Below, piece after piece: positions 475 to 63,600 of a stretch of DNA of 64,000 nucleotides (the stretch's first letter is position 1; each line of letters starts with the position of its first letter). The stretch covers positions 416,001 through 480,000 of the forward strand of contig CAVYXA010000003.1 of assembly GCA_963772365.1 (NCBI GenBank), read 5' to 3'. Under the pieces are notes generated by a model, which saw nothing but the letters and a program-made list of their open reading frames with translations, ran no database searches and was not told the origin of the DNA. A program made the translations under genes and the position numbers. The DNA is from an uncultured Verrucomicrobiae bacterium (GTDB taxonomy: Bacteria > Verrucomicrobiota > Verrucomicrobiia > Chthoniobacterales > UBA10450).

Positions 475-1224
475 ATGGAAACGAAACTCACCTGGTATGG
501 CCAATCTGCTTACAAAATCGTGACCCCGGCGGGGAAAGTTCTGCTCGTCGATCCCTGGTTAACAAATCCGGTTTTCGAAAAGGGGAGGGAGGAGGTTTCC
601 TCGCTAAAAAATGTCGATCTTATTTTGCTCACCCATGGGCATTCCGACCATGTAGGCGAAACGGTAGAGATCGGGAAACAGAGCCGGGCAAAACTCGTGT
701 CCACATTCGATTTATCTGCCGCCATGGTTGGCGCACTCGGCTATCCAAAAGAACTGGCGGATATGGAGACGACCGGTCACATGGGCGGCACACTCAAACT
801 GCTCGATGGCGAAGTGGCCGTCACATTTGTTCCAGCGCAGCATGGCGCGGCTGTAATGAAGGACGAGAAATCACCTCCGGTCTATGGCGGAAATCCCACC
901 GGGCTTGTGATTGCGCTGCGCAACGGGCCTACCTTTTATCATACCGGCGATACCGATCTGTTTTCCGACATGACGCTCATCCCGCGCTTTCACAAGATCG
1001 ACATCATGCTGGTTTGCATCGGCGATCATTTCACCATGGGACCGGATCGAGCGGCAGAGGCAGTCAAACTCGTAGCACCGCAGACCGTAATTCCGATGCA
1101 TTACGGGACGTTCCCTGTTCTTACCGGGACGCCGGATGCGTTCAGCCGAGAATTGAAAGAGCGTGGCGCGAAAGCGGAACTGCGCGTGATGAAAGTGAGC
1201 GAAACGATATCGTTGAGCGTCTAA
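475..1224 (+). CDS. Metallo-beta-lactamase-fold metal-dependent hydrolase (UPF0173/UlaG-like)
   Basis: THGHSDH, YHTGDT and IPMHYGTF motifs. Confidence 0.9.
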   Translation: METKLTWYGQSAYKIVTPAGKVLLVDPWLTNPVFEKGREEVSSLKNVDLILLTHGHSDHVGETVEIGKQSRAKLVSTFDLSAAMVGALGYPKELADMETTGHMGGTLKLLDGEVAVTFVPAQHGAAVMKDEKSPPVYGGNPTGLVIALRNGPTFYHTGDTDLFSDMTLIPRFHKIDIMLVCIGDHFTMGPDRAAEAVKLVAPQTVIPMHYGTFPVLTGTPDAFSRELKERGAKAELRVMKVSETISLSV

Positions 1225-1288
1225 CTTGGGCAAAGCGAATCCTCGGCATACAGCCGCGGAAAGGGGATGAGATCGAATCACAGGGACA

Positions 1289-3113: not shown

Positions 3114-3132
3114 GGTTCAAGTTGCGGCAAAG

Positions 3133-9208: not shown

Positions 9209-9224
9209 CTCGGCGGTTTCGATC

Positions 9225-12637: not shown

Positions 12638-12779
12638 CGATTTATGAGATTTATACAGGTTATAACACTGATAGCCTCCCGCTGGGAAGTGTTTTTCTCA
12701 TTTATTTCTGCACCCTGCTGCCGATACGAATTTGCCACGCTGACAAGCACACTGTAAATTGTCGATCCTAAAAATAGAT

Positions 12780-13137
12780 GGGGGCGCACTGGCTTCGACT
12801 CGTGGTTGGAAGCGCAGGCGGCATGTCGAGGATGGTTCGTTGGCCTCGTTAAAAACCGGACCAAACAAAATAAACGCAGACAACGAAGGTCTCGCTCTCG
12901 CGGCTTAATTGACCGTGACGTTTTCGCAGTGACGCCTGCTAACGGCGAAAACGTGGACAGCAGGCTGGCGAATCAGCGGAGCGACCGCGCTGGTTCGTAA
13001 GATCGACAATCGTGGATGCTCGGGAGGCGGCAGTGCGCCGGTGCAACGTTCGGCTCCTTAAAACTGAACGCCGGATAAACATGTAGATGTTTGCGTCGAT
13101 AGCGACGAGGACAGGGGTTCAACTCCCCTCGCCTCCA
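12780..13137 (+). ncRNA. ssrA: tmRNA; tag (A)DNEGLALAA* at 12876-12908; CCA not encoded
   Basis: 5' GGGGGCG…GGCTTCGAC pairs with 3' CGCCTCC-A (G3:U70); T-arm GGGGTTCAACTCCCC; tag ends ALAA-stop. Confidence 0.97.
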
Positions 13138-14412: not shown

Positions 14413-15420
14413 ATGAACATGAAAGCGTTGTTGTTTGAACGGCCTGTCTGGTTCGCAACTGGTCCGCTGATTCTGAAAGAGGAGGCGCAGGAAATGGAGG
14501 ATTTTACTTATCACCAGCCAGTGCTCGTCAATGAAGTTGTCGATCTACTTGCGCCACGGCCCGGCTCGCTCGTTGTCGATGGAACCTGTGGCGGCGGCGG
14601 GCACAGCGAAGCGATTCTGCGTGCCGGTGCCGATGTGCTCGCGCTCGACCAGGATCCGGATGCCATCGAACACGCCACCGAAAACCTTGCTCCGTTCGGC
14701 GGGCGGGTCACGGTGCGGCAGGCAAATTTTCGGCACGCAGATAAAATTCTGGACCAGCTCGGAATTTCTCAGGTCGGCGGGGCACTTCTCGATCTGGGCG
14801 TTTCGTCACGACAACTCGAAAATGCCGAGCGCGGTTTCAGTATCATGCGGAATGGGCCGTTGGACATGCGGATGGATCCAAATGCGACGCTGAGTGCTGC
14901 CGACATCGTTAACAATTACACCGAAGAAGATCTGACCCGGTTGTTTCGCGACTTGGGAGAAGAGCCGGCCGCACGCCGAATTGCTGCATTGATCGTGAAG
15001 ATGCGCAAGGACGCGCCGCTTCGTGAAACGCTGCCGCTGGCGCGTGCCATTGAAAAAGTGGTTGGGCGTCATGGCCGTCGTCATCCTGCCACTCAGGTTT
15101 TTCAAGCACTTCGAATGGAAGCGAACGATGAACTCGGCGCTCTGGAAGAAGGTTTGCGCGTTTTGACTGCGCGGCTCGAAACAGGTGCGCGGATAGCAGT
15201 GATTTCCTTTCACTCTCTGGAAGATCGAATCGTAAAGAATTTCTTTCGTGACCGCAGCCGAGAATGGTTGGATCGGCCGGAATGGCCGGAGCCGCGACCA
15301 AATCCGAAATGCGATCTCCATCTGATCACGTCGAAACCGGTGGAGCCGAGTATGGAGGAGCAACGCGCCAATCCGCGTTCGCGCAGTGCGAAATTGCGGG
15401 TGGCGGAAAAAATCGCATGA
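14413..15420 (+). CDS. rsmH: 16S rRNA m4C1402 methyltransferase (alternative start 14494)
   Basis: HQPVL, DGTCGGGGHS, DLGVSS, ISFHSLEDRIVK, NPRSRSAKLR. Confidence 0.97.
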   Translation: MNMKALLFERPVWFATGPLILKEEAQEMEDFTYHQPVLVNEVVDLLAPRPGSLVVDGTCGGGGHSEAILRAGADVLALDQDPDAIEHATENLAPFGGRVTVRQANFRHADKILDQLGISQVGGALLDLGVSSRQLENAERGFSIMRNGPLDMRMDPNATLSAADIVNNYTEEDLTRLFRDLGEEPAARRIAALIVKMRKDAPLRETLPLARAIEKVVGRHGRRHPATQVFQALRMEANDELGALEEGLRVLTARLETGARIAVISFHSLEDRIVKNFFRDRSREWLDRPEWPEPRPNPKCDLHLITSKPVEPSMEEQRANPRSRSAKLRVAEKIA

Positions 15421-15785
15421 GCCGATCCCGTCGAAAGAATCGCAACATGATCAACGCGCCATCGCTGGCCCGTTGGATTGTGGTAACGGCGTTTCTTGCC
15501 TTGATCGGGCTGAGCTACGTGTATTTGAAACTTCAGCTTTATCATCTGGGCGATCGCACCAAAGCCCTGGAAAAGCAGCTGGCTGGTTTGCGGACGCAAA
15601 ATGAAGTCGCCAGTTCGCAGATTGCGGCGTTGACCTCACGATCGGCATTGCAACGGCAGTTGAAGGACGGCTACCTGAAAATGATTCCGATTTCCGAGCG
15701 TAACATTGTGCGGCTGAGCATTCCTGCACGGCAGAATGATGAAGACGCGATTCAACCGGTAGTGAATCGAAGCGCTGGACGATGA
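15417..15785 (+). CDS. ftsL: Cell division protein FtsL-like
   Basis: Basic N-terminus, one TM helix, coiled coil; lies between rsmH and ftsI with ATGA overlaps. Confidence 0.7.
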   Translation: MSRSRRKNRNMINAPSLARWIVVTAFLALIGLSYVYLKLQLYHLGDRTKALEKQLAGLRTQNEVASSQIAALTSRSALQRQLKDGYLKMIPISERNIVRLSIPARQNDEDAIQPVVNRSAGR

Positions 15786-17545
15786 AGTGGAATAGCCGAA
15801 TTCGCTGCGCCCTGATTTGTATCGGTTTCACTGCCATCTTCAGCCTCTTCTCGATTCGACTGGTTTATGTTCAGATGATCCAGCACGACGAGTACGCCGC
15901 GCTCGCCGCTGAGAAGCACGTTCACAAGCAAATCATCTACGCAGAACGGGGGGCGATCTTCGACGTCAATGGTGAAGTGCTGGCCAATAATGTGCCCGTC
16001 CACACCGTAGTTGCCGACGCCACGCGGCTGAACAATGTGGAAGCGACTGTCGATCTTCTCAGCCGAGAACTGAAAATTCCCGTCACCGAGTTGGCAGAAA
16101 AATTACATAGCAACCGGCGATACATTGTGGTTCAGCGACAGGTCTCCGATGTAGCGGCAAAATCGCTGCGCGAGAAATTACGCGACCAGCGACTGCTTGG
16201 AATTTATTTCGAGCACGATACCAGCCGGATCTATCCGAACGGCTCGATGCTCTGTCACGTGATCGGATTCATGGATTTCGACCATCGCGGAATTCAGGGC
16301 GTAGAACGATCGATGGAGGAATACCTCCATGGTCAGGACGGTTACCGTTACACCGAACGAAATCGCGCCGGGCAGGAAATCGTGCTTTATCGCGGCCAGG
16401 AACGCGCACCGCGCAACGGTTACGATGTCCATCTCACTGTCGATCTGAATTTACAGAACATCGTCGAGAACGAGATCGATGCCGCCATGCGAGAATATTC
16501 GCCCAAGAAGGCAACAATCATTCTCATGCGCCCGGACACGGGAGAAATCCTGGCGATGGCAAACCGGCCAAACTTCGATCTGAACCTGCGTGCGGAAGCG
16601 AAGCCGGAGCAAAAGAAAAACCGGGCCATCATCGATATGATGGAGCCCGGATCCACGTTTAAGATCGTCGCCGCCGCTGCGGCGTTAAACGAGCGTAAAG
16701 TCCGGCCCGACTCAACCATTTTTTGCGAGAACGGTCTCTGGAATTTTGGCGGCACACCGCTCCACGATCACCGAGCTTTCGGGGAATTGAGCGTCAGAGA
16801 CATTTTGGTGAAATCGAGCAACATCGGCGCGGCTAAGCTCGCTCTCAGTGTCGGCGAAGAAAAGTTTTATGAATACATTCGCCGGTTTGGATTCGGAGAA
16901 CGCACTGGGATCGAACTGCCAGGGGAAATCAGCGGCCTGATTCGTGCGCCGCAATCGTGGAGCAGGATTTCGATCACACGCATTCCGATGGGTCACGAGA
17001 TCGGGGTAACCCCGCTCCAAATGACAGTAGCGATGGCCGCCATTGCCAACGGAGGCAAATTGGTCACGCCGCGGATCGTTAAATCGATCACAAATGATCG
17101 CGGCGAAATTATCAGCTCCCTTTCCCCGGTTCCTTTGCGACGAGTAATTTCTCCCCAGACAGCCAGAGAAATCGGCGATGCGCTGCGCGGTGTCGTGAGT
17201 GATCGCGGCACCGCCGCCGCCGCCGCTATCCCGGGCTTTACCATAGCGGGTAAGACCGGAACCGCCCAGAAACTCGATCCAAAAGGCGGCTACGAGCATG
17301 GAAAATATGTGGTTTCATTTTTGGGATATTTGCCTGCCGATCGCCCCGAATTTGTTGGGCTGGTGGTGCTGGACGACGCTCACACCACGAAACCGGAGTT
17401 GAATTATGGCGGACTTGTGGCCGGTCCAATCTTCGCCCGGATCGCCGACAAGGCGGCCCGCTATCTCGATCTTCAGCCGCATCTGGAAATTCGTCGGGCG
17501 ATCCCCGTGGAACGAGTCGCCTTAACCAATGCCTCACACCGTTGA
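15782..17545 (+). CDS. ftsI: Class B penicillin-binding protein (FtsI/PBP3)
   Basis: EPGSTFK (SxxK), KSSN (SxN), GKTGTAQ. Confidence 0.93.
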   Translation: MKWNSRIRCALICIGFTAIFSLFSIRLVYVQMIQHDEYAALAAEKHVHKQIIYAERGAIFDVNGEVLANNVPVHTVVADATRLNNVEATVDLLSRELKIPVTELAEKLHSNRRYIVVQRQVSDVAAKSLREKLRDQRLLGIYFEHDTSRIYPNGSMLCHVIGFMDFDHRGIQGVERSMEEYLHGQDGYRYTERNRAGQEIVLYRGQERAPRNGYDVHLTVDLNLQNIVENEIDAAMREYSPKKATIILMRPDTGEILAMANRPNFDLNLRAEAKPEQKKNRAIIDMMEPGSTFKIVAAAAALNERKVRPDSTIFCENGLWNFGGTPLHDHRAFGELSVRDILVKSSNIGAAKLALSVGEEKFYEYIRRFGFGERTGIELPGEISGLIRAPQSWSRISITRIPMGHEIGVTPLQMTVAMAAIANGGKLVTPRIVKSITNDRGEIISSLSPVPLRRVISPQTAREIGDALRGVVSDRGTAAAAAIPGFTIAGKTGTAQKLDPKGGYEHGKYVVSFLGYLPADRPEFVGLVVLDDAHTTKPELNYGGLVAGPIFARIADKAARYLDLQPHLEIRRAIPVERVALTNASHR

Positions 17546-17573
17546 ACTCATTGCGACCGATTGTTGAATTCTC

Positions 17574-19052
17574 ATGCAGCTCAAAGCCCTTGCCGATGCC
17601 ATTTCAATCCGCCAGATCATCGGCCCACTTGATCGCCCGGTGGAAAATATCGCGTATGACTCGAGGCGAGTGCAGAGGAATGGCATGTTCGTGGCGTTGC
17701 GGGGTGAAAAAAATGACGGACACAATTTCATCGACCAGGCGATCGAAAAGGGCGCCACGGTGATCGTCACCGAGAAGGAAGAGAAACATTCTCGCGCCAC
17801 TTGTCTGGTTGTAGAAAATAGCCGCGAAGCCTTGGCTGGTCTCGCCGCGACATTTTACCGGCGGCCAGCGGAACGATTGAAGATCGCGGGCATCACCGGG
17901 ACGAATGGCAAAACCACGACGACCTTTCTCATCAAACACATTTGTGAAAAGGCCGGGCTGCGCTGCGGGTTGATCGGGACAGTTCGCTACGAAATCGGCG
18001 AGCGCGTTCTGCCGGCGACCCGCACCACACCGGAATCTCTCGATCTTCAGGAGCTGCTCGCGCAAATCGTGAATGCCGGGTGCCGCGCCGCCGCGATGGA
18101 AGTGTCGTCGCATGCGCTGGCCCAGAATCGCACCGGCGATATCGAATGGGACGTCGCAGTCTTCACCAATCTCACCCAGGACCATCTCGATTTTCATCGG
18201 ACGATGGAAAATTACTTTGAAGCCAAGGCCAAATTATTCACCGGACTCGCTGGACAGCAAAAGAAACGGAAACCGATCGCAATTGTGAACATTGACGATC
18301 GATATGGCGAACGCCTCGTAGGGAGGATCGACAAAAACGTTTCCGTAATCACGTTCGGAATGGGCGCGCGCGCCGATTTTCGCGCCTCGAATTATCGAAT
18401 GGAATTTGGCGGCACATCCTATCAGCTCGATGCGCGCGGCCGGAGCTATCTGGTGCGCGTTCCCTTGATCGGCCGGTTTAACGTCGCCAATTCCATGGCC
18501 GCGATTGCAGCAGCGAGTGCTCTCGGAGTGAATCTGCGCGAAGCCATCCTGAGCCTGGGCAAATCGCCACAAGTCCCGGGCCGTCTGGAAACGGTACCAG
18601 CCAAACGGCAATTCCAAGTTTACGTCGATTATGCGCATACACCCGATGCATTGCTCAATGTGATGAAGACGCTGCGGGAACTTGCGCCGCGGCGTTTGAT
18701 TGTGGTTTTTGGTTGTGGCGGAGATCGCGACCGCCAGAAACGGCCGCTCATGGCGCAAGCCGTGGATCAAAATGCCGATTATGCAATCGTCACCTCCGAC
18801 AATCCGCGAAAAGAAGATCCTGACGCGATTATTACCGAGGTCGAAAAAGGTTTTCGATCGGATCACTACGAGAAGATCACCGACCGCGCCCAAGCCATTG
18901 CGCGGGCAGTGGAGATCGCCCAGCCGCGCGACATTGTCTTGATCGCGGGCAAAGGTCACGAAGCATATCAGGAATTCGCGGATCACACCGTGCCGTTCGA
19001 CGATATTCAGGTCGCGCGTCGCGCGATCGAGGACCATCCGGTGGAGTTTTAA
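17574..19052 (+). CDS. murE: UDP-MurNAc-dipeptide--meso-DAP ligase
   Basis: GTNGKTT, MEVSSH, DNPR (DAP specificity), AGKGHE. Confidence 0.97.
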   Translation: MQLKALADAISIRQIIGPLDRPVENIAYDSRRVQRNGMFVALRGEKNDGHNFIDQAIEKGATVIVTEKEEKHSRATCLVVENSREALAGLAATFYRRPAERLKIAGITGTNGKTTTTFLIKHICEKAGLRCGLIGTVRYEIGERVLPATRTTPESLDLQELLAQIVNAGCRAAAMEVSSHALAQNRTGDIEWDVAVFTNLTQDHLDFHRTMENYFEAKAKLFTGLAGQQKKRKPIAIVNIDDRYGERLVGRIDKNVSVITFGMGARADFRASNYRMEFGGTSYQLDARGRSYLVRVPLIGRFNVANSMAAIAAASALGVNLREAILSLGKSPQVPGRLETVPAKRQFQVYVDYAHTPDALLNVMKTLRELAPRRLIVVFGCGGDRDRQKRPLMAQAVDQNADYAIVTSDNPRKEDPDAIITEVEKGFRSDHYEKITDRAQAIARAVEIAQPRDIVLIAGKGHEAYQEFADHTVPFDDIQVARRAIEDHPVEF

Positions 19053-19074
19053 TGAATCATTTGTCGATCTTACG

Positions 19075-19163
19075 AGGTGGATCGGGCTCTCCGAGCACGA
19101 TGCCAAAAAATACGCGGCTTCGCCGTCATGCTTACCATCGCCCCCGGGGGTCGCGATCCACCT
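19075..19163. repeat. REP/MITE-like imperfect inverted repeat between murE and murF
   Basis: 28-bp arms (19075-19102, 19136-19163), 21/28 complementary; ends AGGTGGATCG…CGATCCACCT. Confidence 0.75.
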
Positions 19164-19164
19164 G

Positions 19165-20565
19165 ATGAATTCGATGCCGCTCTCACAGATTGCTGCATTT
19201 GCTGGCGGAACGCTGGTTTCCGGAGATGGAACGACCTCGGTTTCAAAAGTCAGCACTGATTCGCGCACTTTGAAGTCGGGCGAATTGTTCATGGCGTTAC
19301 ACGGTGAAAATTTTGACGGCCATAAGTTTGTCGAGAATGCAGCGAAGGCTGGCGCGGCGGGAGCGATTGTCGATGTTAATTGGAAAGGCAAAACGCAAAC
19401 CGGATTTGCGTTAATTCGGGTGGAAGACACGCTCGCAGCCTATCAAAATCTCGCCGCGAACTATCGAAAATCGCTTTCGATCAAAGTTCTCGCCATTACC
19501 GGAAGCAACGGGAAAACAAGCACGAAGGATTTCGTTGCTTCGGTGCTCGGCAGAAAATTTCGAGTCACGAAGACGGAAGGCAATTTCAATAATCACGTCG
19601 GACTCTCGCGCACGATTTTGGAAGCGACATCAAACGACCAGGTTGGCGTTTGGGAAATCGGAATGAATCATCCGGGTGAAATTGCGGCGCTGGCCAAGAT
19701 TGCGGCAGCCGATTTCGCCATTATCACAAACATCGGCGTCGCCCACATTGAGTTCATGGGAACGCGCGAAGCAATCGCCAAAGAAAAAGGAGCGTTGGCA
19801 GAGGCGGTTGGCTCGCAGGGGATAGTCATTTTGAATGCGGACGATCCGTTCAGCAAAAGCATTGCAGAACGAACCCGTGCCAGAGTGGTTTTTGCCGGCA
19901 CCGCAGCGGGAACGATCCGCGCCGGTGAAATTACCCAAAGTGCGAATGGATCCGATTTCACCATTCTGGAAGGAGCGCATCGTTGTCGCGCTCAACTACC
20001 AGTGCCCGGATTGCATATGGTGCAAAACGCCATGCTGGCCGTGGCCGCCGGACGCGTATTCGGTCTTTCGCTGGAAGAAAGCGCAGCTGGTCTCGCTGCG
20101 GCGCCGCTCACCAAAGCGCGTTTGCAGATCAAAGAGATTCGCGGCGTTCAGTTCATCGACGACAGCTACAACGCGAACCCGGACTCGATGAAAGCGGCCT
20201 TGCGCACACTGGTGGAATTGGACGCGGATGGGAAACGAATCGCCGTCTTGGGTGAGATGCGCGAGCTGGGCGCGGAATCAGAATCCGGCCACCGCGAAGT
20301 AGGCGAAACCGCGGCCGCGCTCGGTGTTGATTACGTGATCGCTATTGGCGATGTCGCCGCAGGAATTGCTGACGCCGCAAAACGAGCCGGACTGGAAAAA
20401 AGCACGGCAGTAGGATCGACATCCGAAGCGGTTGATTTGTTAGACGAGATCGCTCAACCGGGTGATCTCGTTTTGATCAAGGGAAGCCGTCTCGCTCGCA
20501 CGGAAAAAGTAATCGAGCAGTTCGATCTTCGTCATTCCTCATTCGCCGCTCACGATTCGCCATGA
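19165..20565 (+). CDS. murF: UDP-MurNAc-tripeptide--D-Ala-D-Ala ligase
   Basis: GSNGKTSTK, NFNNHVG, DDSYNANP, LIKGSR. Confidence 0.97.
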   Translation: MNSMPLSQIAAFAGGTLVSGDGTTSVSKVSTDSRTLKSGELFMALHGENFDGHKFVENAAKAGAAGAIVDVNWKGKTQTGFALIRVEDTLAAYQNLAANYRKSLSIKVLAITGSNGKTSTKDFVASVLGRKFRVTKTEGNFNNHVGLSRTILEATSNDQVGVWEIGMNHPGEIAALAKIAAADFAIITNIGVAHIEFMGTREAIAKEKGALAEAVGSQGIVILNADDPFSKSIAERTRARVVFAGTAAGTIRAGEITQSANGSDFTILEGAHRCRAQLPVPGLHMVQNAMLAVAAGRVFGLSLEESAAGLAAAPLTKARLQIKEIRGVQFIDDSYNANPDSMKAALRTLVELDADGKRIAVLGEMRELGAESESGHREVGETAAALGVDYVIAIGDVAAGIADAAKRAGLEKSTAVGSTSEAVDLLDEIAQPGDLVLIKGSRLARTEKVIEQFDLRHSSFAAHDSP

Positions 20566-21662
20566 TGTATTATCTTCATCGCTTCAGCGAGCAGTTTGGC
20601 GGATTCAATGTTTTTTCGTACGTCACCTTTCGCGCCGTGGCCGCCGCAGTCACCGCATTTGTGCTTTCGTTGATTTTCGGAAACTGGGTCATCGATAGAC
20701 TGACCGCGCTCAAGCTCGGCCAACCGATTCGTCTGGCAGCAGAAGTTCATCGTTTGGCCGAGCTGCATGGAGGTAAACAGGGGACTCCCACGATGGGCGG
20801 TGTGCTAATCATCGGCGCGGTCTTCATTTCCAGTGTGCTTTGGGCCCGGCCGGATAATCGCTTCGTCTGGCTTGCTCTCTTTGCCTTGCTTTACCTCGGC
20901 GCGCTCGGATTTGCCGACGATTATCTGAAGGTGACCCACAAGAAATCCGCAGGGGTCAGCGGCCGTTACAAATTGCTGTTTCAAATCATTCTGGTCGGGA
21001 TTGTGACGGCGGTTTTTCTCACCAGTCCATTGCTTCAGGTGCAGGCGCGTTCGCTTTACGTGCCGTTCATCAAGGCGCCGGTGATCGACAACATGGGCTG
21101 GTTCACTTTTTTCTTCTTCGCACTGGTGGTGGTGGGAGCGTCCAACGCGGTCAATCTCACGGATGGTCTCGATGGCCTCGCTACCGGTTGCACTGTGACC
21201 GTGGCCTTTGCCTACGCGCTCCTCTCCTACGCGGCCGGAAATTTCCGCATCGCCGAATATCTTCAGGTTCCGTTCTATCCGTTCACCGGCGAGCTTACGG
21301 TTGTTTGTGCAGCGCTCATCGGCGCCGGGCTCGGCTTTCTCTGGTTCAATTGTCATCCCGCGAAAGTTTTCATGGGGGATACGGGCTCGCTCGCCATTGG
21401 CGGGATGATCGGTGTGGTGGCGATTTGTTGTAAACAAGAACTACTTTTGGCCGTGGTGGGCGGGGTCTTCGTTATCGAAGCCGTATCTGTGATTTTGCAG
21501 GTAATTAGCTTTAAAACCACTGGGCGCCGCATTTTCGCAATGTCGCCGATCCATCATCACTTCGAATTGATAGGCTGGAAAGAGAACACCGTGATCGTCC
21601 GGTTCTGGATTTTGTCGGCAATTTTCGCCTTGCTAGGGCTGGCCACCTTAAAACTGCGATGA
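20562..21662 (+). CDS. mraY: Phospho-MurNAc-pentapeptide transferase
   Basis: GTPTMGG, NAVNLTDGLDGLA, FMGDTGS, PIHHHFE. Confidence 0.98.
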   Translation: MMYYLHRFSEQFGGFNVFSYVTFRAVAAAVTAFVLSLIFGNWVIDRLTALKLGQPIRLAAEVHRLAELHGGKQGTPTMGGVLIIGAVFISSVLWARPDNRFVWLALFALLYLGALGFADDYLKVTHKKSAGVSGRYKLLFQIILVGIVTAVFLTSPLLQVQARSLYVPFIKAPVIDNMGWFTFFFFALVVVGASNAVNLTDGLDGLATGCTVTVAFAYALLSYAAGNFRIAEYLQVPFYPFTGELTVVCAALIGAGLGFLWFNCHPAKVFMGDTGSLAIGGMIGVVAICCKQELLLAVVGGVFVIEAVSVILQVISFKTTGRRIFAMSPIHHHFELIGWKENTVIVRFWILSAIFALLGLATLKLR

Positions 21663-22999
21663 ACCAGCCTAATTACGAGAACAAGGATGTTGCCGTTCTT
21701 GGCGCCGGATTGAGCGGAACCGCTGCGGCGCTTCTGCTTCGATCGAAAGGAGCAAACGTTACCGTCCTTGACAGCGCCGACGAAAAAAACCTGCTGAAAT
21801 CCACCATCGACAATCTTCGCCAGGAAAGCATTCGCGTAATTTGTGGACTGCAAGCGGCGAAAGATTCCTCGGTCTGTCAACTCGCGGTTTTGAGTCCTGG
21901 AATCGATCCGGCCTCGGCGCTGGCGCGCAATTTTTCCGGGCGCAACATCGACATCATCGGTGAGCTCGAGCTTGGTTGGCAGTTCTGTGACATTCCAGTC
22001 ATCGCCATTACCGGCACGAATGGTAAAACCACAACCACCGAACTACTCGCGCAGATGCTGAACGCATGCGGTCAACGAACCATCGCCTGCGGCAACATCG
22101 GCAAGCCGCTTTCTGAAGTTGCCCGCGAGCGGAAATCATTTGATGTGCTCACGGTCGAGGTGAGCTCGTTTCAACTGGAAACGGTTCGGACGTTTCGTCC
22201 TTCGATCAGTCTTTGGCTTAATTTCGCTCCCGATCATCTCGATCGTTATCGCTCGGTGGGCGATTATCGCACCGCAAAACTTCGCATTTTTGAAAATCAA
22301 ACGGAGAACGACGTCGCCGTCGTCAATGCGGCGGAAAGGCTTCCCAAAATTCGGCCGCGCAGGATTACTTTCAGCGCTTACTCCGATCAGGCGGACTTCC
22401 GCCTCTCTGCGGGCGCAATTATTTACCAAAATGAAGAGATTCTTCGGCTGGCCGACACAAAATTGCGCGGTTCCCATAACATTGAAAACCTGATGGCGAC
22501 GCTGGCGGCCGGCATGGCGCGCGGTCTCTCATTTAAGGAAATGGTGCCGCCGCTTTGCAGCTATCAACCGCAGCCACATCGCTGTGAATTTGTGCGTGAA
22601 ATCCGTGGGGTCACTTACATCAATGATTCCAAAGCGACGAATCTTGATGCCGTGGAAAAAGCCTTGCGCGCGCAAACCAAGCCGATCGTCCTCATCGCCG
22701 GCGGAAAAGACAAAGGCTTCACGTTCGATCCGCTTCGAGATCTGGTGAAAGAGAAAGTTCGATCGACAATTTTACTCGGTGAAATGGCGCAAAGCATCGC
22801 GCGCTCGTGGAATGGTGCGACCGGGATCGACATTGTCAATTCCCTGGCCGGCGCGGTTGAGAAAGCTCACGCGATCGCCAAGCCGGGCGAAATCGTCCTT
22901 TTTTCTCCAGGCACATCTTCCTTCGACATGTTCAAAAGTTATGCCGATCGCGGCGATCAGTTTCGCGCGCTCGTGCAAGCACTCCCCAAAACAAAATGA
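21659..22999 (+). CDS. murD: UDP-MurNAc-L-Ala--D-Glu ligase
   Basis: GTNGKTTT, EVSSFQLE, DHLDRY, NDSKATN, SFDMF. Confidence 0.97.
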   Translation: MNQPNYENKDVAVLGAGLSGTAAALLLRSKGANVTVLDSADEKNLLKSTIDNLRQESIRVICGLQAAKDSSVCQLAVLSPGIDPASALARNFSGRNIDIIGELELGWQFCDIPVIAITGTNGKTTTTELLAQMLNACGQRTIACGNIGKPLSEVARERKSFDVLTVEVSSFQLETVRTFRPSISLWLNFAPDHLDRYRSVGDYRTAKLRIFENQTENDVAVVNAAERLPKIRPRRITFSAYSDQADFRLSAGAIIYQNEEILRLADTKLRGSHNIENLMATLAAGMARGLSFKEMVPPLCSYQPQPHRCEFVREIRGVTYINDSKATNLDAVEKALRAQTKPIVLIAGGKDKGFTFDPLRDLVKEKVRSTILLGEMAQSIARSWNGATGIDIVNSLAGAVEKAHAIAKPGEIVLFSPGTSSFDMFKSYADRGDQFRALVQALPKTK

Positions 23000-23577
23000 A
23001 AATCCCCAGAATTCTTCGACGCAAAAAACTTCGAGCTACCACTGCGGCGCGCCGGTCGCTTCGTGCTTCTGCCGAAATGGGCTACGACGATTTGTCGGAA
23101 CCGAACATGAAGTTGTCGCGCGCGCTTTTGATTGTCTTGCTGCTGCACATTGTCGCAGTTTCCGGAATCGTCGCTTTCAACGCGATCAAAAGCCGCCAGG
23201 GATCGTTCGTGAAAGCGGCATTAGGGAAAAAGACGTTGGCAGTTCGGCAAAATATCCAGCCGCCGACGAATTCGCCGGTGCGGAGCGAACAGAGCAAACA
23301 AAATACCCGCGTTTCCCGGGTCGTACCATCGACAACGGAGAAACCAAAAGGAGCGGAAACGGCAGTTAAAGCGTCCGAGCGTGATTCTAAGCCAGTTGAT
23401 TCCGGCAAGGTTTACGTCGTCGTAAAAGGAGATAACCCGGTCACGATCGCGAAGAAATTCAAAGTCGCCTACGACGATTTAATGGAGCTCAACCATATCG
23501 AAGATCCGAGAAAATTACAGATCGGCACGAAACTATCGATTCCCGAATCAGTAAAGCAAAGGAAGGCAGGCGAATGA
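22996..23577 (+). CDS. Membrane-anchored LysM domain protein
   Basis: One TM helix; C-terminal YVVVKGDNPVTIAKKFKV…LQIGTKLSIP. Confidence 0.9.
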   Translation: MKIPRILRRKKLRATTAARRSLRASAEMGYDDLSEPNMKLSRALLIVLLLHIVAVSGIVAFNAIKSRQGSFVKAALGKKTLAVRQNIQPPTNSPVRSEQSKQNTRVSRVVPSTTEKPKGAETAVKASERDSKPVDSGKVYVVVKGDNPVTIAKKFKVAYDDLMELNHIEDPRKLQIGTKLSIPESVKQRKAGE

Positions 23578-23628
23578 CAGGGAGGGTGGTCAAAGTTTTT
23601 TGGCGAGCGCACGCGCCTTCGAATCCAC

Positions 23629-24771
23629 ATGCATCGTAAGAGCGCGTACATTCTTTTTCTGGCTGTGCTGGCGCTGCTGGTGATCGGCATCGTGATGCTT
23701 TTCAGCACCAGCGCATTTGCCCGTGATAGTCACGGCGATGTCCTGTTTTTCATTAAACGACAGGCGATCTGGCTCGCTGTCGGACTGTCGATCTGCGCGG
23801 CAGCCGCGCTGGTGGATTATCATTTCTGGCAACGCACCTGGTGGATTTGGTTGGCCGTTGCGCTCGTGGCTTTGGCGCTTTGCTTTGTGCCTCATGTCGG
23901 CCTGCGCCTCAATGGCTCGCGGCGTTGGATCGGTTTTGGCCAGGTGGCCTTTCAACCCTCGGAGATTGCAAAGATTGCTGTCGTTCTTTTTCTGGCGTGG
24001 TGGTTTTCGCGTTATGAAAAAGTAATGAGCAATCCGCTTCACAGTTTTCTTTTGCCACTCGCCATCGTCGGTTGCCTGCTCGCGCTGATACTATTTGAAG
24101 TGGATCTTGGGACGACAGCATTGCTGGTGGCGACCGTATTTGTGATCATGTTTGTTGCCGGCGCAAATCCTGTAGTGCTAGGTCTGATTACCTCCATCGG
24201 TCTTGGCGGCATTTTCGTTGTCGCTACGCAAATCTCCGAACGAATGGGCAGGCTCTCCGCATTTCTCGATCCGCAACGCTTCAAGGAAGACGCCGGCTTG
24301 CAGCAAATGCAGGCGTTGATCGCGCTCGGCAGCGGAGGAATGGACGGTCTGGGCCTGGGCAATGGCCGACAGAAAATGCTCTATCTTCCTTACGCGCATA
24401 CCGATTTCATTTTCCCGATCATCGGCGAGGAACTTGGCCTTCGGTTCAGCTTGCTCGTCGTTTTCCTCTTCATCGTCATTATTGTTTGCGGAATCATTAT
24501 TGCGCTCCACGCCAAGGATCGGTTTGGACTGCTCGTTGGCTGCGGCGTGGTTTCGTTGCTCGGATTGCAAGCCGCGGTAAACATCGGCGTCACGACATCG
24601 CTCCTGCCAAACAAAGGATTACCATTGCCATTCATCAGTTATGGTGGTTCCAACCTTGTTGCCTGTTTATTTGGAATCGGGTTGCTGTTGAATATTTATC
24701 GCCAGGGAATTTTCGAGCCGCGCAATCAGAAACAGCACTCCATGCACGCGCGGATCACGCCACGAATCTAA
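23629..24771 (+). CDS. ftsW: SEDS peptidoglycan polymerase FtsW
   Basis: GSRRWI, FQPSE, LPYAHTDFIF, LPFISYGGS. Confidence 0.95.
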   Translation: MHRKSAYILFLAVLALLVIGIVMLFSTSAFARDSHGDVLFFIKRQAIWLAVGLSICAAAALVDYHFWQRTWWIWLAVALVALALCFVPHVGLRLNGSRRWIGFGQVAFQPSEIAKIAVVLFLAWWFSRYEKVMSNPLHSFLLPLAIVGCLLALILFEVDLGTTALLVATVFVIMFVAGANPVVLGLITSIGLGGIFVVATQISERMGRLSAFLDPQRFKEDAGLQQMQALIALGSGGMDGLGLGNGRQKMLYLPYAHTDFIFPIIGEELGLRFSLLVVFLFIVIIVCGIIIALHAKDRFGLLVGCGVVSLLGLQAAVNIGVTTSLLPNKGLPLPFISYGGSNLVACLFGIGLLLNIYRQGIFEPRNQKQHSMHARITPRI

Positions 24772-24790
24772 TGAGACGAATGTTTCACAA

Positions 24791-28199: not shown

Positions 28200-28201
28200 T
28201 G

Positions 28202-28306
28202 CGTCATTCTGAGCGGAGCGAAACGAAGTGGAGCGCAGTCGAAGAATCCCGCGAAATTCCCTTCGAGGTGGTCTCACGGGATCCCTCGACTTCACTCGGG
28301 ATGACG
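28202..28306. repeat. Palindromic intergenic element of the GTCATTCTGAGC…GGGATGAC type
   Basis: Ends CGTCATTCTGAG / CTCGGGATGACG; inner pairing AGTCGAAGAATCCCG / CGGGATCCCTCGACT. Confidence 0.75.
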
Positions 28307-28308
28307 AT

Positions 28309-31544: not shown

Positions 31545-31571
31545 ATGCGATAGGCAAAATTTTAATGTTTG

Positions 31572-31635
31572 GTAGGGCGCGACCGCCGGGCGCGCTGGAG
31601 ATACGCAATTGTGGACGGCCCGGCGGTCCGCCCCC
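31572..31635. repeat. GTAG-type REP-like hairpin between ftsA and ftsZ
   Basis: Starts GTAGGGCG; perfect 11-bp IR GACCGCCGGGC (31581-31591) / GCCCGGCGGTC (31618-31628). Confidence 0.7.
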
Positions 31636-57551: not shown

Positions 57552-60500
57552 TCATACAACTGGCGATTGCCGAAGTCTTTTCCACTCCTGCGCAAGTTCA
57601 TCGCCATGGTACGGCAGAATCTGACCTGCCGCGGTCGAATAGATTGCCGCCTCCACGGATCCAGTAGTGAGCTGGCTAAGCGCACGCCAATAACCTGCCA
57701 TCTGTGGTAAGTAAACTCCGCGTAACATGTCGATCTCTGCGCGATTCGTTTTCCAATCCAGAATGAACCATCTTTTCTTTTCCGGATGGCAGAGGGCAAG
57801 ATCGACAATTCCTTCCAGAGATTCTCGATCATCCATTCGCCAGAAAAATGGCATCTCTGCATGAACAACTGGCCTGTCACAGCCGAGTCGATCCGAGAAG
57901 TCCCCGAGCTTCGAGATTCGGTCGCGGAGTAATTTCCATTCCCTCGCCGAGCGCGTCATGTCCGGAGATTTGGGATGCATTTGCAAAAAGATTTCATCCC
58001 AGGCGGACGAATCGGAGCTCCAGGGAATCTGTTGCACAAACTCATGCCACCAGATTCCATAGCGCGTGGCCGGGTTTTCGATCCGCGGCGGACGCAATTC
58101 CGGCTCGATCTCCATCCAGATGTCTGGGTTTTCTTCCGGTTGCTTTTTCGGAGCGAATTTGCTCGGACTGACCGTGCGAATAAATCGCGCTGCGCTCCGT
58201 CCCGCATTGTCGATCCAACCGGTCTCACGTCGGCCAAGATTATTGTGAACCGGTTCAGCCGTGACCGCTCGTTGTCTCGTTTCTGTATCCGGGCATTCGC
58301 GGGCCTCTGATGAGAGGGAAGCCAGCGCCTGGCAATTGCATCCGGCATTGCCAGCACGCAACCATTCGATCTGCGAATCCGAGTGAAACTGACGTTTCGA
58401 TGTCAGAAACAAATCGTGATCGAACGCCAAAACCAGCGTGTGCCTGGCCCGGGTGAGTGCAACGTAAAGCAATCGCTCCATTTCCTGGCGATCCGTTTGT
58501 TTCACGCTTTCCTCTAGCTCGCTGAAATCCGTGCGATCGAACAGGAGTCGCGGTCCATTTGGGGTTCTGATCACGTACGGATAACGCGGCGAATTCATCC
58601 AAACTCTTCGGGTTAGAAACGGCGCGATCACTGCCTGCCACTCCGAGCCTTTGGCTTTATGCGAAGTGATTAGTTGAATCGCATCTTCCGACGATGGATT
58701 CGTTTCTCGAATCGTATGGAATTTCGTCCGCAGTTGCGCGGCGAAGTCGAACAGGGAAAGCCCACGCGCCTCTGCCGCGGCTGCGCGACTCAGCAAATTG
58801 TCCAGCTCCCAGCCGAGGTCGCCGAATTCCTCTCGCGGAAGGCAGCGCAATCTTTCCCGCAGTTGCGTTGTGCGAACAATTTCCTGGGTGGCGGTGAAGA
58901 GCGGTTGTCGGGCGATTGCATTGCGAATCCGAAACAAATTATTGAGAATGTCCTGCACGGCGCCGCGGCCGGCAGTTCGCTCTGCGATTTGAAATTTGGC
59001 ACCCTTACCTTCCGAAAATCGGGCGAGATCGTCATCGGAGAGACCGAACACTTCGCGAAGCACTCCAACAATTTCATAGCTTGCGTTCGGATCGATTAGG
59101 ATTGCCAGCAGCGCCGTCAACCAGGCATACGCGGGATTCTCGGCTTCGCGATCCGTCTCCGATTGGACTTCTACCGGAAGATCGACCTCCGTGAGCGCAT
59201 CTCGCAGTGAGCGGAGCCATGCTTTTCTCGGACAGAGGATGGCCACGTCTCGCCACGATTGCGCCCGCAATTTTTTCAGACCGGCGTCGCGTATCCATTT
59301 GGCAAGTTCTCGGGCTTCGATTGCCGCGCACTGGGCCTCGAGCAATTTAGGATCGACATCGCAGTGAAAATCGAGCCGGACGACTTGTCCGGGCAAGACA
59401 TCCGGGCGCGGATTCAATTCCACAAACTCAACTTGTCCATCCTGGTTGTTCAGGATTTCGCCGAAAGTTTGATTCGCGAAACCAAGCTGTTTTCGATCTA
59501 GCCGAAACGTGACCGAGAATTTCAACTCCTCCGCTGCCCCAGTTTTGACTAGCGATTGATGAAGCTCGCGGTAATGCCCCAGATCCGCCGGATCGCGATA
59601 AATCGATTGCTGAAAATCGCCGACCATGCAGAAATGGCCCGGACGCGGCGACGGCTGTAGATTCGAAGCGTTGGCAGATCCGGCAATTTGCAGCAGGACG
59701 AAAAATTGTTCGGGATCCGTGTCCTGTGCTTCATCCAGGATCACCCGATAGTTTTTCTCCCGGATACGCTGCACAACTTCCGGTCGCCGCAATAATTCCG
59801 ATGCCAGTGTAACCTGGTCGCGATATGTCACTAGCCCGCGTTCGAGTCGAAAATCGCGGTAATCGCGCTGGATCTCGCCCGCGACACAGAGCGCGCATGT
59901 ATTCACCCATTCGCGTAAAGGCCGAAACGCTTCGCGCCAGATCCGCACGAACTCGCGCGAATTCGTCACGCACGGCGGCCACGGCGCAAATTGATCATTG
60001 TCACGCCATCGCTTTTCCCAGCGTTTCAGTTCGGCCTGGGCAGTTGCGATCTTGGTCGCGCCTTTGATTCGCGCCGCATAAACCGCAGCAAAGTTTGTAT
60101 CAGGGCATGTGGTTTCTGGCTGGCCGCCGCTAAGATCGACATCGGCATTGCGCGCCAGCTCCATTAATTGCCGCACTCGCACGTGCCGCAAGAGGACTCG
60201 CCGATTCTCCTCGGTCAAGGAGCGCCCGATGGTGGCGTATTGTTGAACAAAGTGGTTCCACAAATCTTCGTCATCGGTGATCAACTCCAGATTCGCCGGA
60301 AGCCCGAGATAATGGCCGTGCGCGGCAAGCAGTTTCACGCAGAAGCTATGGATCGTCCCGAAAAATGCACGATTGAACGCTTCCATCACATCCAGCGATA
60401 AACCGGCCTCGAGAATCTGCTGACGGGCCCGCTGCTGCATCTCGTCTGCCGCCCGATTGGTGTATGTGACCACCACGAGCTGAGGCAGCCATTCCAGAGC

Positions 60501-60641
60501 CTGCCGGCTCCTGGCGATCTCCCAAATTCGATCCGTGATAGCGCGAGTTTTTCCTGAGCCAGCTGACGCAACCACGGAAAAATTTTTGTCCAGCTCGGAG
60601 GAGAAACGCTGGCGCATGATCTGGTCGGCGGTCTCGGTCAT
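57552..60641 (-). CDS. UvrD-type helicase with C-terminal RecB-like nuclease (AddA-like)
   Basis: ASAGSGKT, TIHSF, LDEAQD, VGDFQQSIY, TSHKAKG, LLYVALTRA, GIVDL…ILDWKT. Confidence 0.9.
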   Translation of the reverse strand: MTETADQIMRQRFSSELDKNFSVVASAGSGKTRAITDRIWEIARSRQALEWLPQLVVVTYTNRAADEMQQRARQQILEAGLSLDVMEAFNRAFFGTIHSFCVKLLAAHGHYLGLPANLELITDDEDLWNHFVQQYATIGRSLTEENRRVLLRHVRVRQLMELARNADVDLSGGQPETTCPDTNFAAVYAARIKGATKIATAQAELKRWEKRWRDNDQFAPWPPCVTNSREFVRIWREAFRPLREWVNTCALCVAGEIQRDYRDFRLERGLVTYRDQVTLASELLRRPEVVQRIREKNYRVILDEAQDTDPEQFFVLLQIAGSANASNLQPSPRPGHFCMVGDFQQSIYRDPADLGHYRELHQSLVKTGAAEELKFSVTFRLDRKQLGFANQTFGEILNNQDGQVEFVELNPRPDVLPGQVVRLDFHCDVDPKLLEAQCAAIEARELAKWIRDAGLKKLRAQSWRDVAILCPRKAWLRSLRDALTEVDLPVEVQSETDREAENPAYAWLTALLAILIDPNASYEIVGVLREVFGLSDDDLARFSEGKGAKFQIAERTAGRGAVQDILNNLFRIRNAIARQPLFTATQEIVRTTQLRERLRCLPREEFGDLGWELDNLLSRAAAAEARGLSLFDFAAQLRTKFHTIRETNPSSEDAIQLITSHKAKGSEWQAVIAPFLTRRVWMNSPRYPYVIRTPNGPRLLFDRTDFSELEESVKQTDRQEMERLLYVALTRARHTLVLAFDHDLFLTSKRQFHSDSQIEWLRAGNAGCNCQALASLSSEARECPDTETRQRAVTAEPVHNNLGRRETGWIDNAGRSAARFIRTVSPSKFAPKKQPEENPDIWMEIEPELRPPRIENPATRYGIWWHEFVQQIPWSSDSSAWDEIFLQMHPKSPDMTRSAREWKLLRDRISKLGDFSDRLGCDRPVVHAEMPFFWRMDDRESLEGIVDLALCHPEKKRWFILDWKTNRAEIDMLRGVYLPQMAGYWRALSQLTTGSVEAAIYSTAAGQILPYHGDELAQEWKRLRQSPVV

Positions 60642-63600
60642 GGGTTTTCCTCGCCTTCAATCGCCAGCGCAGGGTGCGTGAGCCCCCATTTTTCTTTCAG
60701 CAACTCCTGATCGATCGCGAGCGTCGCCAGCGGGTACGTGCGGGCAAATCCAAATTCCTGGTAAATCGGCCCGACCATTCCGAACACGCCGGTTTCCTGC
60801 ATCCGGTAAAGCTCGCACCAGAATTCCTTTTGTGCGTGGACATGGGATAAGTCGAACTGCGGTTCCAATTCATCCTCGAGACCGAGCAGCGTGAGCCGGA
60901 TATTCGACGCGCCAAGCGATTCGGCAGCCAAAGCATAAAGACCGAGCTGCACGCCGCGGCCTTTCACCAATTGCTTCCGAAATTTTTGTTCGTGCGATTC
61001 GTGGCGTCTGAGATCGCGCAGGTTAAAACCGCGTTGTCGTCCAGTCTTGTAATCGACAACCCAAAGGTCCGGAAAAGTAATCCGCGACGAATTCCGTTCG
61101 CCTCGTCCCAGAATCAGATCAATCCGGCCGCTCACATGCAGCGATTTGTTTTGCGCTAGAACAATATTCGTCGGCTTGTCCAGAGCCCATTCTGGTGCCA
61201 TGTGCGGCCAGTCTTCGTCGAGTCCCGACAATTTCAGCGTCAGGCAATCGGCTATATGAAGTGCATTGTTCCAGCCCGATACCCACCAGTCCGGCATTGG
61301 CTGGGAGCTTGCGGTGCACAGGTCGCTCACATCGTTCCGAAATCGGCGAGCATTCTCGATCATGCGCGCACGGATCTCTTCCACCTGGCACAGCTCGACA
61401 AACGCTTCGCTACTGGAACCGCGCACGCCATCGGCCAGCCAGCGATGCACCCATTGTCCTGTCGATGTTGCCCAGGCATCGGCATTTTCATCGGTAGGCT
61501 CAATCCCGAGGAAAACTTTCATCCAAACGATCGCGGGCGACTTGATCGCGGCTTCCCATTCGGTGACCCGCAAAGAAAGCTGTCGGTCGGGCGGTCTGCG
61601 CAGCGCAAATTCATATTCGCCGGCTTCGCGCAATTGCCGTCGCGCATCGAAAGCATATCGAGTCCGTCCTACGCTAATGGAATCCACCTTCTGCGCATCA
61701 ACCGGCGACCAATCTTTTAGCCATTCTCGCGTTAGTGCTTCCAGTGCGAGCAGGGTTCTCTGTGAAACACCTCGGCCCCGTGCGGTGAAGTAAAGACGCG
61801 AAAACAGCTCCGTCGGATTTGCGGTCCGGCTTGGGAATGATTCCGAATAGAGGTTCGCTGTCACTCCGATGCCAGCTGACGCCGATTCGATCAGATTCCG
61901 AAGTTGTCGATGTCGAATCTGGCGGCGCTCGCTCGATCCTAACAGCAGCGTTTTACCTTCATGGACGCTCCACTGACCTTCTCCATGCCGGCCGCGTTTT
62001 ACCGCCCGCCGGTTCAACTTCTTATTTTGGCGATTGAATTCGTCCACAGCCTGATCGCCCACGAATCCAAATTCGCTGTCGAAGGACGGCCATGCTTCTT
62101 CGTTCAATCCGGCGAAAATCAAGTGAGTCCAGGATTGGCCTTCCGCTTCCGAATAATGAAGCAGATGCACTTTGGCGTAGGGATGAGCTCCCAATTCATC
62201 ACGGTCGAGAGAGACCGCTCCGAGAATTTCGCCTAACCAGCGCAAATAGATACTTCTTGAGAAAGGTTGCGGGATGCGATCAGACCATTCGCGGCTGAGC
62301 CGTTCCACTTCGCTCCAATGCTGTTTCCACCCGAGCTGGCCGAAGGTCTTTCGAGTTTGAGCCAGAAATTCGGCGAACGGCGCGAGTGCGGAGAGAAATT
62401 GAATCTTCTCCAGACCGGTCGCGATGCCGGCTTTGTCGTCCGAGCGGGTGCAGAATTCGCGTAGGATGTCGATGTTATCTATCAGCACTTCCGCGTAAGC
62501 GCGGCGCAGTTTGTCCTCGATCTCGAAGATCGACAGATTGTCGAAAATCGTGGCGTCAGTTGCGCGCAGGAATCGAAAGAGAAATTTCAGCCGCGGATTT
62601 TGCTGAAGTGCCAGCCAGGATCGCCAGGCATCATCGTCGAAAACACTCGGCGTTAGATGCGCGATTCCGTCGTAGTGCGCAATCCCGGCCGACTCTAGAA
62701 ATTTCGCCACTAATCGCGGAAGCGCGCCGCTCTGCGGGAAGAGAACGCCAATACGGCTGGCATTTTCTTCATCAAGAAATTTTGCCGTTAGCGCGACAAC
62801 TGCCCGGGCCTGCTCACTCGTGTCTCGTCCCACCAGAAAGTAAACATTCTCGAGCGGATTTTCAGTGCGCTCCATTCTCTCCGATTCGGTTTCCGGCACC
62901 TGAAAAACTTGATTGGTTAAACCAGCAAAACTTGGCCGAGCACTTTCCGGTTCTGCAATTGGTTCAGCGGCGCCAAATGTTTCTTCCCATGTCCCAATCC
63001 AGGTTTCATCGAGATCGCGGGCTTCATCTCGCGGGTCGCTTAGGATCACTGTTGCCTCGGAAGAAGATTTCACCGCGGCCTGTAGCAGCGGCCAAAGCGG
63101 CCAGTGCGCGCCGTCAAACCCGATCACCAGCAAATTGGCAAAACGCGCCGGCGATGTTTCGGTGTTTGTGACAGCATCTCGATCGGCTTCGTGAACGAAA
63201 GCGAACCCGCAAGCGTGCGTGATTTGAGCAAATCGCTCCGCGATCTCGCGCAGATCGGGTTCGGCAATCTCTTCGAGCTGCCAACCGGCTGCGCTCAATT
63301 GATCGATCACGCGCAGAAAATGTTCCGGATCGCGCGCCACGGCTTTGGCAACGAGCGATTCTTTTTGTTCCTCTGCCGCGACCCCCAAAATGAGCCGCAA
63401 ATGCTCGCGCAACGGAATCTTTAAAGCGCGGTCACGTAGAAGAATTTCCCGGAGCTGTGCCGGCGAAAGAAATTTCACGGCCAGCAGAGACAGATCGGTG
63501 TTCAGAATCCTGCTCCGCAAGAAAGTGGCATAACTGCGAGAGGGAGTGATCACGGCCACGGGCAAAGAGTCTTCAGATGCTCTCGGCGCTACATTTTCGA

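Follow-up and report, generated by a model that had tools for sequence, protein, structure and literature searches.

A dispersed 10-mer, probably an uptake-sequence-like signal, in one clade of a Chthoniobacterales family

The non-palindromic 10-mer TGTCGATCYT is over-represented in both orientations in the genome of an uncultured Verrucomicrobiae bacterium (Verrucomicrobiota; Chthoniobacterales; UBA10450), where it was noticed in a stretch of 64,000 nucleotides, hereafter the window (GenBank assembly GCA_963772365.1, contig CAVYXA010000003.1, positions 416,001 to 480,000; C3:416001-480000 in our contig numbering). The genome that holds the window, G000, consists of 6 contigs of 3.35 Mb in total with a GC content of 55%, and its nearest relatives in a MurD comparison are metagenome bins of Chthoniobacterales, Spartobacteria, Verrucomicrobia or Candidatus (Ca.) Udaeobacter; below, other G-numbers denote genomes of relatives and g-numbers genera of the family. 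An earlier note on the window had proposed a chromosome-wide signal and had named an uptake sequence, a nucleoid-protein site and a methylation-linked motif as candidates. A chromosome-wide, frame-independent and unskewed signal is borne out by the present analysis, and of the three candidates the uptake sequence is best supported, methylation finding little support and a nucleoid role no positional support. In every population-level respect tested, bar the pairing of copies in terminators, the word resembles the DNA uptake sequence (DUS) of Neisseriaceae and the uptake signal sequence (USS) of Pasteurellaceae, and by this analogy we consider it on balance likely to be an uptake-sequence-like signal, unrelated to them in sequence.

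All 43 copies that had been read by eye in the window proved exact, with none missed and none extra, where 100 dinucleotide shuffles gave a mean of 0.41 and a maximum of 3 copies. The 10-bp copies start at 612, 11581, 12760, 13695, 16048, 19062, 27274, 28476, 29178, 32625, 38287, 39773, 41150, 43992, 45399, 46184, 48407, 49956 and 55702 on the plus strand (19 copies) and at 994, 6451, 7367, 9357, 11279, 11515, 12999, 18324, 20412, 26163, 28722, 32894, 33391, 34481, 44539, 50524, 51738, 52810, 53532, 56836, 57798, 59349, 60132 and 62526 on the minus strand (24 copies), and the variant TGTCGATGYT occurs nine times (9602, 19368, 35840, 61460 and 62467, plus; 2739, 21944, 41199 and 46366, minus). 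Coding frames, which rest on a purpose-written dicodon gene caller (3,074 calls, 81% of G000 coding), contain 34 of the 43 sites, and the proposed use of several reading frames is confirmed by their translations (20 xVD[LP], 7 xSI[LF], 5 [KR]ID and 2 xGST). The other nine carry no gene call: five lie in open reading frames (ORFs) missed by the caller, one is at 11515, and three are clearly non-coding, namely the plus-strand copies at 12760..12769, 20 bp upstream of the transfer-messenger RNA (tmRNA) gene, and at 19062..19071, in the murE/murF spacer, and the minus-strand copy at 12999..13008, which lies, as had been claimed, within the tmRNA gene (12780-13138, plus), where there is no codon constraint. 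The copies at 12760 and 19062 are thus intergenic as described, whereas the non-coding status given to 11515 is uncertain because this site falls inside the longest msrA ORF (11477-12154), at the start of msrA.

G000 as a whole carries 1,531 exact copies (756 plus and 775 minus; 1,048 of the form TGTCGATCTT and 483 of the form TGTCGATCCT), and the density, one copy per 1.5 kb in the window, is slightly lower genome-wide, at one per 2.2 kb. Markov models of orders 3-6, with the word masked in training, expect 28-85 copies, and an unmasked order-7 model, which is trained on the word itself, expects 841. The 1,314 coding copies exceed 13-fold the 100±9 obtained in 20 within-gene synonymous shuffles, and they are distributed over the frames as 584, 335, 189, 112, 90 and 4, five of the six frames being common. 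A further 199 copies are intergenic and 18 straddle a gene edge, and short intergenic spacers hold 36 copies where 0.6 are expected. Counts that merely match codon-shuffled or Markov expectations, which the earlier note had named as refuting its proposal, were not seen with either kind of null. Enrichment confined to a single VDL frame and missing from non-coding DNA, the other refutation named there, is contradicted by the five frames and the intergenic copies, and a codon or peptide artefact is ruled out by these together with the synonymous shuffle and the masked Markov models. Peptides that permit the word mostly use it (KID[ITKNMSR] 229/268, [KEQ]DR[HQ] 92/100 and xVDL 404/641, in genes with a score ≥20). 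Variants with one base changed in the central TCGA do not exceed the null, whereas those changed at the edges are enriched 3- to 13-fold, and the strictest positions of the word are TCGAT. Near-forms include 299 copies of TGTCGATGTT and 144 of TGTCGATGCT; the former is 12-fold above the synonymous null genome-wide, and the working consensus is therefore (W)TGTCGATSYT. W is softly preferred before the word, and the G000 flanks carry almost no information (<0.06 bit) outside -2 to +1. The 10-mer is a free-standing word, not a piece of a longer repeat, and a mobile repeat of the repetitive extragenic palindrome (REP) or miniature inverted-repeat type is ruled out by these unrelated flanks. The next enriched 10-mers of G000 after masking are GTCATTCTGA, TGCCCTACAA and CGCCGCTACA, which we take, from their appearance, to be REP-type hairpin repeats.

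The layout of the word along the chromosome bears on what might read it. Chi and the FtsK-orienting polar sequences (KOPS) are asymmetric over-represented words on the core genome and are polarised with replication. The 10-mer is likewise an asymmetric, over-represented core-genome word, and AddAB-like genes are present, as an AddA-like helicase and an AddB-like PD-(D/E)XK nuclease encoded as a pair in the window (57552..63667, minus; 4 exact copies), but the word lacks polarity. Replichores were inferred on C1 only, the guides being a weak GC skew and the strand bias of its genes, and its three segments hold the two orientations in nearly equal numbers (132/136, 229/241 and 152/160), in agreement with the remark in the earlier note that both are common. 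The word might nevertheless be a cytoplasmic recombination or self-protection mark, either Chi-like for AddAB or a shield of self DNA from a host nuclease, which would be read after entry or at breaks and so be favoured by repair or recombination. Such a mark would suit both the AddAB-like pair and the depletion of the word in foreign-looking DNA, but not the missing co-orientation with replication, and we regard it as unlikely. The depletion is seen in 2,135 genes ranked by codon typicality, where density rises from 0.28/kb in the most atypical decile to 0.80/kb in the most typical, and cas and type I restriction-modification loci (cas1/cas4 with a C2c1 gene; long gaps) have no copies, an observation that is partly circular because these loci were picked from gaps. 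The former locus (L334, C1:93500-102500) itself encodes a Cas4-Cas1 fusion and C2c1 (Cas12b), with the helical and RuvC parts of the latter in two overlapping frames. The 16S gene and 48 tRNAs hold zero copies and are too short to inform. Among the matches listed from IMG/VR, none of the 115 viral loci holding a 14-base extension of the word was motif-rich (at most 3 copies in 11-20 kb; 80 with flanks); this counts against a recombination or protection mark and led us to reject phage mimicry, although the test is weak and phages of the host may be absent from it.

The spacing of copies is similarly featureless. There is no surplus of close pairs (14 within 35 nt, 7 of them inverted, against about 30 expected; 1,960 gaps), and the word therefore does not build terminators. 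No periodicity was detected (periodogram maximum above 1 kb 6.7, null mean 7.7), nor any macrodomain pattern along G000. If the word were bound by a protein that organises the nucleoid or acts in replication, with each site under direct selection, this could explain why it is evenly spread across coding and non-coding DNA and why sites are conserved across genera. Such a role would hardly be expected to leave no macrodomain, polarity or period, however, and if it were essential to chromosome architecture a density ranging from about 25 to 1,640/Mb inside one clade would be difficult to understand; this explanation seems very improbable. The octamer HIP1 (GCGATCGC) of cyanobacteria, which is palindromic and quasi-periodic, offers a different precedent, since it resembles the 10-mer in density, in being conserved in coding and non-coding DNA and in containing GATC. 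A ratchet of this kind, in which a methyltransferase marks TCGA or GATC within the word and copies then multiply through biased repair or through methylation-dependent transformation, would agree with the strictness of TCGAT, with the conservation of an orphan N4/N6 methyltransferase in the family and with the tie of HIP1 to methylation-dependent transformation described in the available text of PMC13756078. The 10-mer is, however, neither palindromic nor periodic, GATC is not enriched in G000, GCGATCGC occurs 690 times there against 818 expected (order 4), and a sister 9-mer of the family, GCCTAACGA, contains neither TCGA nor GATC. A cognate methyltransferase, for which the earlier note had suggested looking, did not emerge either, as none of three kinds tracks the motif in the five genomes tested for each: C5 enzymes were not found in four (G000, G001, G027 and G026) and so are missing from most, the Dam-type family is present in only two and missing from the two densest tested, and the orphan enzyme is present in all five, motif-rich and motif-poor alike. 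We consider a methylation ratchet quite unlikely. The orphan enzyme (L309, C4:28032-28889 in G000) shares 66-83% identity among these family genomes.

Within the family, at least 200 copies/Mb are found in 43 of 201 genomes and 14 of 36 genera by hand count, with up to 1,640/Mb; two of the rich genomes, G014 and G196, are unpublished and entered only in this tally. The highest counts are those of genus g27, with 2,743-4,747 copies (4,747 in 2.9 Mb), and of G007, with 2,724, whereas elsewhere in the order the count is 1-49 (24 genomes, 15 families), and among 14 Ca. Udaeobacter loci of ≥9 kb only two have at least four. All rich genomes fall in one clade with a support of 1.0 in a tree of 12 concatenated proteins of the division and cell wall (dcw) cluster from 40 genomes. 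The clade also contains the low-density members G010, G012, G021, G022, G029 and G036, while G013 (79/Mb) is placed outside it. At 14 sites common to at least four rich genomes the word is exact at 13 in G027, at 12 in G007 and G011 and at 9 in G000, and the mean number of mismatches at those sites is 2.2 in G010 and G022, 3.2-3.7 in G012, G021, G029 and G036, and 3.9-5.2 in outgroups. This fits one gain of the 10-mer in the clade followed by uneven decay. Lineages differ in dialect as well, the CCT form accounting for about 6-10% of the exact copies in G027 and G007 but for 32% in G000.

The word has also left its imprint on the proteome. The dcw cluster of the window, from rsmH to ftsA (14413..31575, plus), holds sites common to relatives, and orthologues in 12 rich genomes contain 36 distinct sites, of which 20 are common to at least two and sharing spans genera; the site at 29178, read as YVDL in ddl, is exact in 9 of the 12 and that at 27274, read as LSIL in murC, in 10. 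Many dcw sites replace other residues of the outgroups, as in ddl, where YVDL stands against YAQL or YPEL. The tripeptide KID is 3.6x over-represented, against 0.75x for the reversed DIK, and occurs 45 times in the dcw orthologues of the 12 rich genomes and 5 times in those of 14 poor ones. Permissive dcw positions use the word in 106 of 191 cases in rich genomes and in 0 of 55 in poor ones. Taken with the KID surplus, this means that the word alters amino acids as well as codons.

The 10-mer is not the only dispersed word of the family. The unrelated 9-mer GCCTAACGA came to light in the dcw loci. It is scattered in the same manner in sister lineages, occupies coding positions across several frames in G004, G026, G019, G006, G020, G005 and G027, and reaches 4,633 copies in the family; G000 has 86 (reversed control 65), its top residual 8-mer after masking being CCTAACGA, and genus g27 carries both the 10-mer and the 9-mer at high density. 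In samples of 80-116 kb from the motif-poor G133, G021, G029, G024 and G002 there was no clear third strong word, only weak GCCTAACGA and, in G021, a CCTAACCG variant. CCTAACCG is the top 8-mer of G021 (15 copies, 2 expected; L021, L130, L319-L322), where it is possibly a dialect of the 9-mer. G040, from another family of the order, shows over-represented dispersed ATGGAACTC and relatives, as well as TCCTAACA / CTAACATC (L034, L133-L137), suggesting further signals in the order, and AATTCCTC / AAATCCTC are at about 10-fold excess in 20 kb of G044 (L139).

Genes that might serve DNA uptake are found in G000, which encodes ComEC (766 amino acids), DprA, PilT-family ATPases over the cut-off, secretins, two PilB, PilC and N-methyl pilins, and possibly also ComM, ComF and RecA, as judged by sequence motifs. 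It further carries two four-gene minor-pilin cassettes, at C1:1130384-1134302 and C1:761966-765823, whose large subunit has 0 matches in Pfam and 0 sequence matches in PDB. An AlphaFold2 model was made of its orthologue from G001 (33-row alignment, pLDDT 84, pTM 0.81), and a Foldseek search with that model returned Thermus ComZ as the sole match at E≤1e-3 (best 6e-8); VIA likewise ranks ComZ first of 48,161 chains, ahead of ice-binding solenoids (Z 13.7, root-mean-square deviation (rmsd) 10.4 Å, 351 aligned). The large subunit is thus predicted to be a pilin domain with an inserted beta-solenoid of the ComZ type. The predicted protein shares with the ComZ/PilA2 tip complex of Thermus thermophilus (PDB 6QVI) the pilin domain, the inserted beta-solenoid and the placement in a minor-pilin cassette, whereas identity is about 10-12%, TM about 0.22-0.24 and rmsd 10-14 Å over the whole chain. 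ComZ binds DNA and was proposed as the tip receptor, according to the accessible part of PMC6561018. Just one ComEA-like protein is found in the family, a secreted fusion of a staphylococcal-nuclease (SNase) fold with helix-hairpin-helix motifs, an unusual pairing that has been repeatedly truncated or lost (L127-L133). ComP, the DUS receptor of Neisseriaceae, was over the cut-off of PF16732 in none of five genomes. Three weak ComP matches fall on an acidic, mostly cysteine-free standalone pilin, which we rejected as receptor; it occurs in 48 of 60 genomes irrespective of the motif and its tree is unrelated to the motif. A second standalone pilin, with a full orthologue in only one of five genomes, was rejected too.

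The density of the words shows an association with the presence of two of these genes. We tabulated by hand the cassette and the ComEA-like gene in 104 published genomes, 72 of them at least 90% complete, scoring as present two-piece ComEA hits in one open frame and the gene of G092, which is split over two contigs, and as absent SNase-only or frameshifted forms. A strong cut of ≥1,000/Mb for the 10-mer or ≥390/Mb for the 9-mer, which was chosen post hoc, is passed by 15 of the 72 near-complete genomes, from 7 genera, and all 15 hold the cassette and a full ComEA-like gene, whereas it is reached by none of the 51 near-complete genomes without one or the other. Densities (/Mb) in the 10-mer clade are 21, 92, 1,048, 1,283, 1,637 and 1,637 where both genes are present; they range over 14-569 in the 16 genomes that have just the cassette, over 26-215 in the 14 that have just ComEA and over 12-550 in the seven that have neither. 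The cassette is missing in 22 of 22 genomes of the decayed genus g10, and within g6 it is found in 6 of 7 9-mer-rich and 4 of 14 poor genomes (p=0.02). That the highest densities occur in genomes whose uptake genes are intact is not what a recombination or protection mark would lead one to expect, although the persistence of the word in genomes without a ComEA-like gene would suit it. The same association is left unexplained if the word were driven by another transfer route, for instance as a packaging or pac-like signal of a gene transfer agent or transducing phage; such a signal would be expected to give the same unskewed accumulation and to need no ComEA, but no element of this kind was identified, though no systematic search was made, and we judge this route highly improbable.

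Several observations weigh against an uptake signal read by these genes. Kin among the tabulated genomes are not independent, 6 of the 21 near-complete genomes with both genes stay below the strong cut, presence of the cassette does not predict density within g35 (p=0.47), and motif-rich g15 yielded no cassette in 4 of 4 genomes (73-87% complete). ComEC is present in 43 of 45 genomes irrespective of the motif. In G000, the sole ComEA-like gene is a truncated remnant of about 90 N-terminal codons and one of the two ComZ-like genes has no in-frame N-terminus, in an assembly that holds several split genes; the ComEA-like gene is also absent or partial in all five other 10-mer-rich genomes tested, and in many more, at 200-570 sites/Mb. 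The cassette trees contain at least three cassette types in 10-mer-rich genomes, types that occur in the motif-poor g16 and g21 as well; no one-to-one correspondence of tree and motif emerged, with exchange between genera and only one clade, of 6 members, purely 9-mer-rich. There are no inverted terminator pairs of the kind known from DUS and USS. Uptake in Thermus is itself not sequence specific, as far as the available sections of PMC6561018 go, and in cyanobacteria similar solenoid PilX pilins sit at the tips of competence pili and adhesion pili alike, according to the portion of PMC13759059 at hand. Because those relatives cap either kind of pilus, the ComZ-like fold is suggestive only. 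The losses of ComEA might be less damaging than they appear: in Legionella, the accessible text of PMC7811196 describes transformation about 100-fold lower, not abolished, after loss of comEA, and since that effect is partial, loss of ComEA here may weaken the drive without ending it.

From the enrichment, distribution, proteome effect, clade restriction, decay, gene presence and predicted fold, we infer DNA binding, specificity, uptake and drive as follows. A type IV competence pilus would bind extracellular DNA with a preference for (W)TGTCGATSYT, and this preference most likely lies in the minor-pilin tip cassette, whose large subunit is predicted to fold like Thermus ComZ. Fragments bearing the word would be taken up and recombined more often, so that it would accumulate wherever the protein tolerates it, by molecular drive, and DNA of kin would become marked; that molecular drive through biased uptake can yield such distributions is stated in the part of PMC7811141 available. 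The preference might have arisen once, at the root of one clade, beside the older, family-wide 9-mer. Genomes in which neither the tip cassette nor the ComEA-like gene is damaged would have the strongest signal, and those that have lost one of the two would show it weakened or eroded; G000, with its truncated ComEA-like gene, is probably a case of intermediate density and looser dialect.

For Pasteurellaceae and Neisseriaceae, the use of self-specific uptake sequences is an established fact, as set out in the accessible passages of PMC7811141 and PMC12616744. The 10-mer is like DUS (10-12 bp) in length, in being non-palindromic, in occurring in both orientations, in its lineage dialects and in its depletion in acquired DNA, and its copy number in G000 is comparable to the 1,892 of Neisseria meningitidis given in the consulted extract of PMC7811141. 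USS, with its 9-bp core, has in common with the 10-mer a strict inner core with softer edges, an imprint on the proteome, a density of about one per 1-2 kb and a candidate reader among the minor pilins, ComN/PpdA being the predicted USS receptor according to the text at hand of PMC12616744; unlike USS, the 10-mer has no flanking AT tracts, and in g27 it coexists with an unrelated word. It does not belong to DUS or USS in the strict sense, because its sequence and phylum are unrelated to theirs, ComP is not over the cut-off, terminator pairs are absent and uptake is here only deduced. A bolder and distinctly tentative possibility is that this family, although not proteobacterial, has sequence-specific uptake and uses two or more unrelated signals for it, an old 9-mer having been joined and, in most descendants, replaced by the 10-mer, which leaves g27 "bilingual"; the reader would be a ComZ-type solenoid tip pilin unlike ComP or ComN, carried in exchangeable cassettes, and density would record the time since each lineage lost parts of the uptake machinery. 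A search of the open literature, with subscription papers and supplements outside its reach, found no description of the 10-mer or the 9-mer.

Some features of the assembly and of neighboring genes deserve mention. In the window, ftsZ, malate synthase and aceK are split or partial (31648-32691, 34787-35920 and 37463-39269), and the assembly therefore likely has indel errors. A MurC-MurB fusion protein is encoded at 25806-28199, and a Family B DNA polymerase-like gene (39300-41537) immediately follows the glyoxylate-shunt genes. The contig ends C1:1-~60000 and C3:~774000-832895 (L336, L337) have a GC content of 66-74%, nearly lack the 10-mer and show an unrelated-looking gene content; they probably stem from chimeric joining or from foreign DNA that entered the bin.

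If the uptake reading is true, the relatives of Ca. Udaeobacter would show that kin-biased uptake moulds both genome and proteome in common soil bacteria, in another phylum than those of the two classic cases. The family would offer what those cases lack, that is, a dated gain of a new word, two-word lineages and every stage of decay. How uptake specificity originates, turns over and is lost, and whether molecular drive or selection is at work, could then be tested directly. On the practical side, the word could serve as a tag on DNA meant to transform uncultured members of the family, and its density separates native from foreign or mis-binned DNA.

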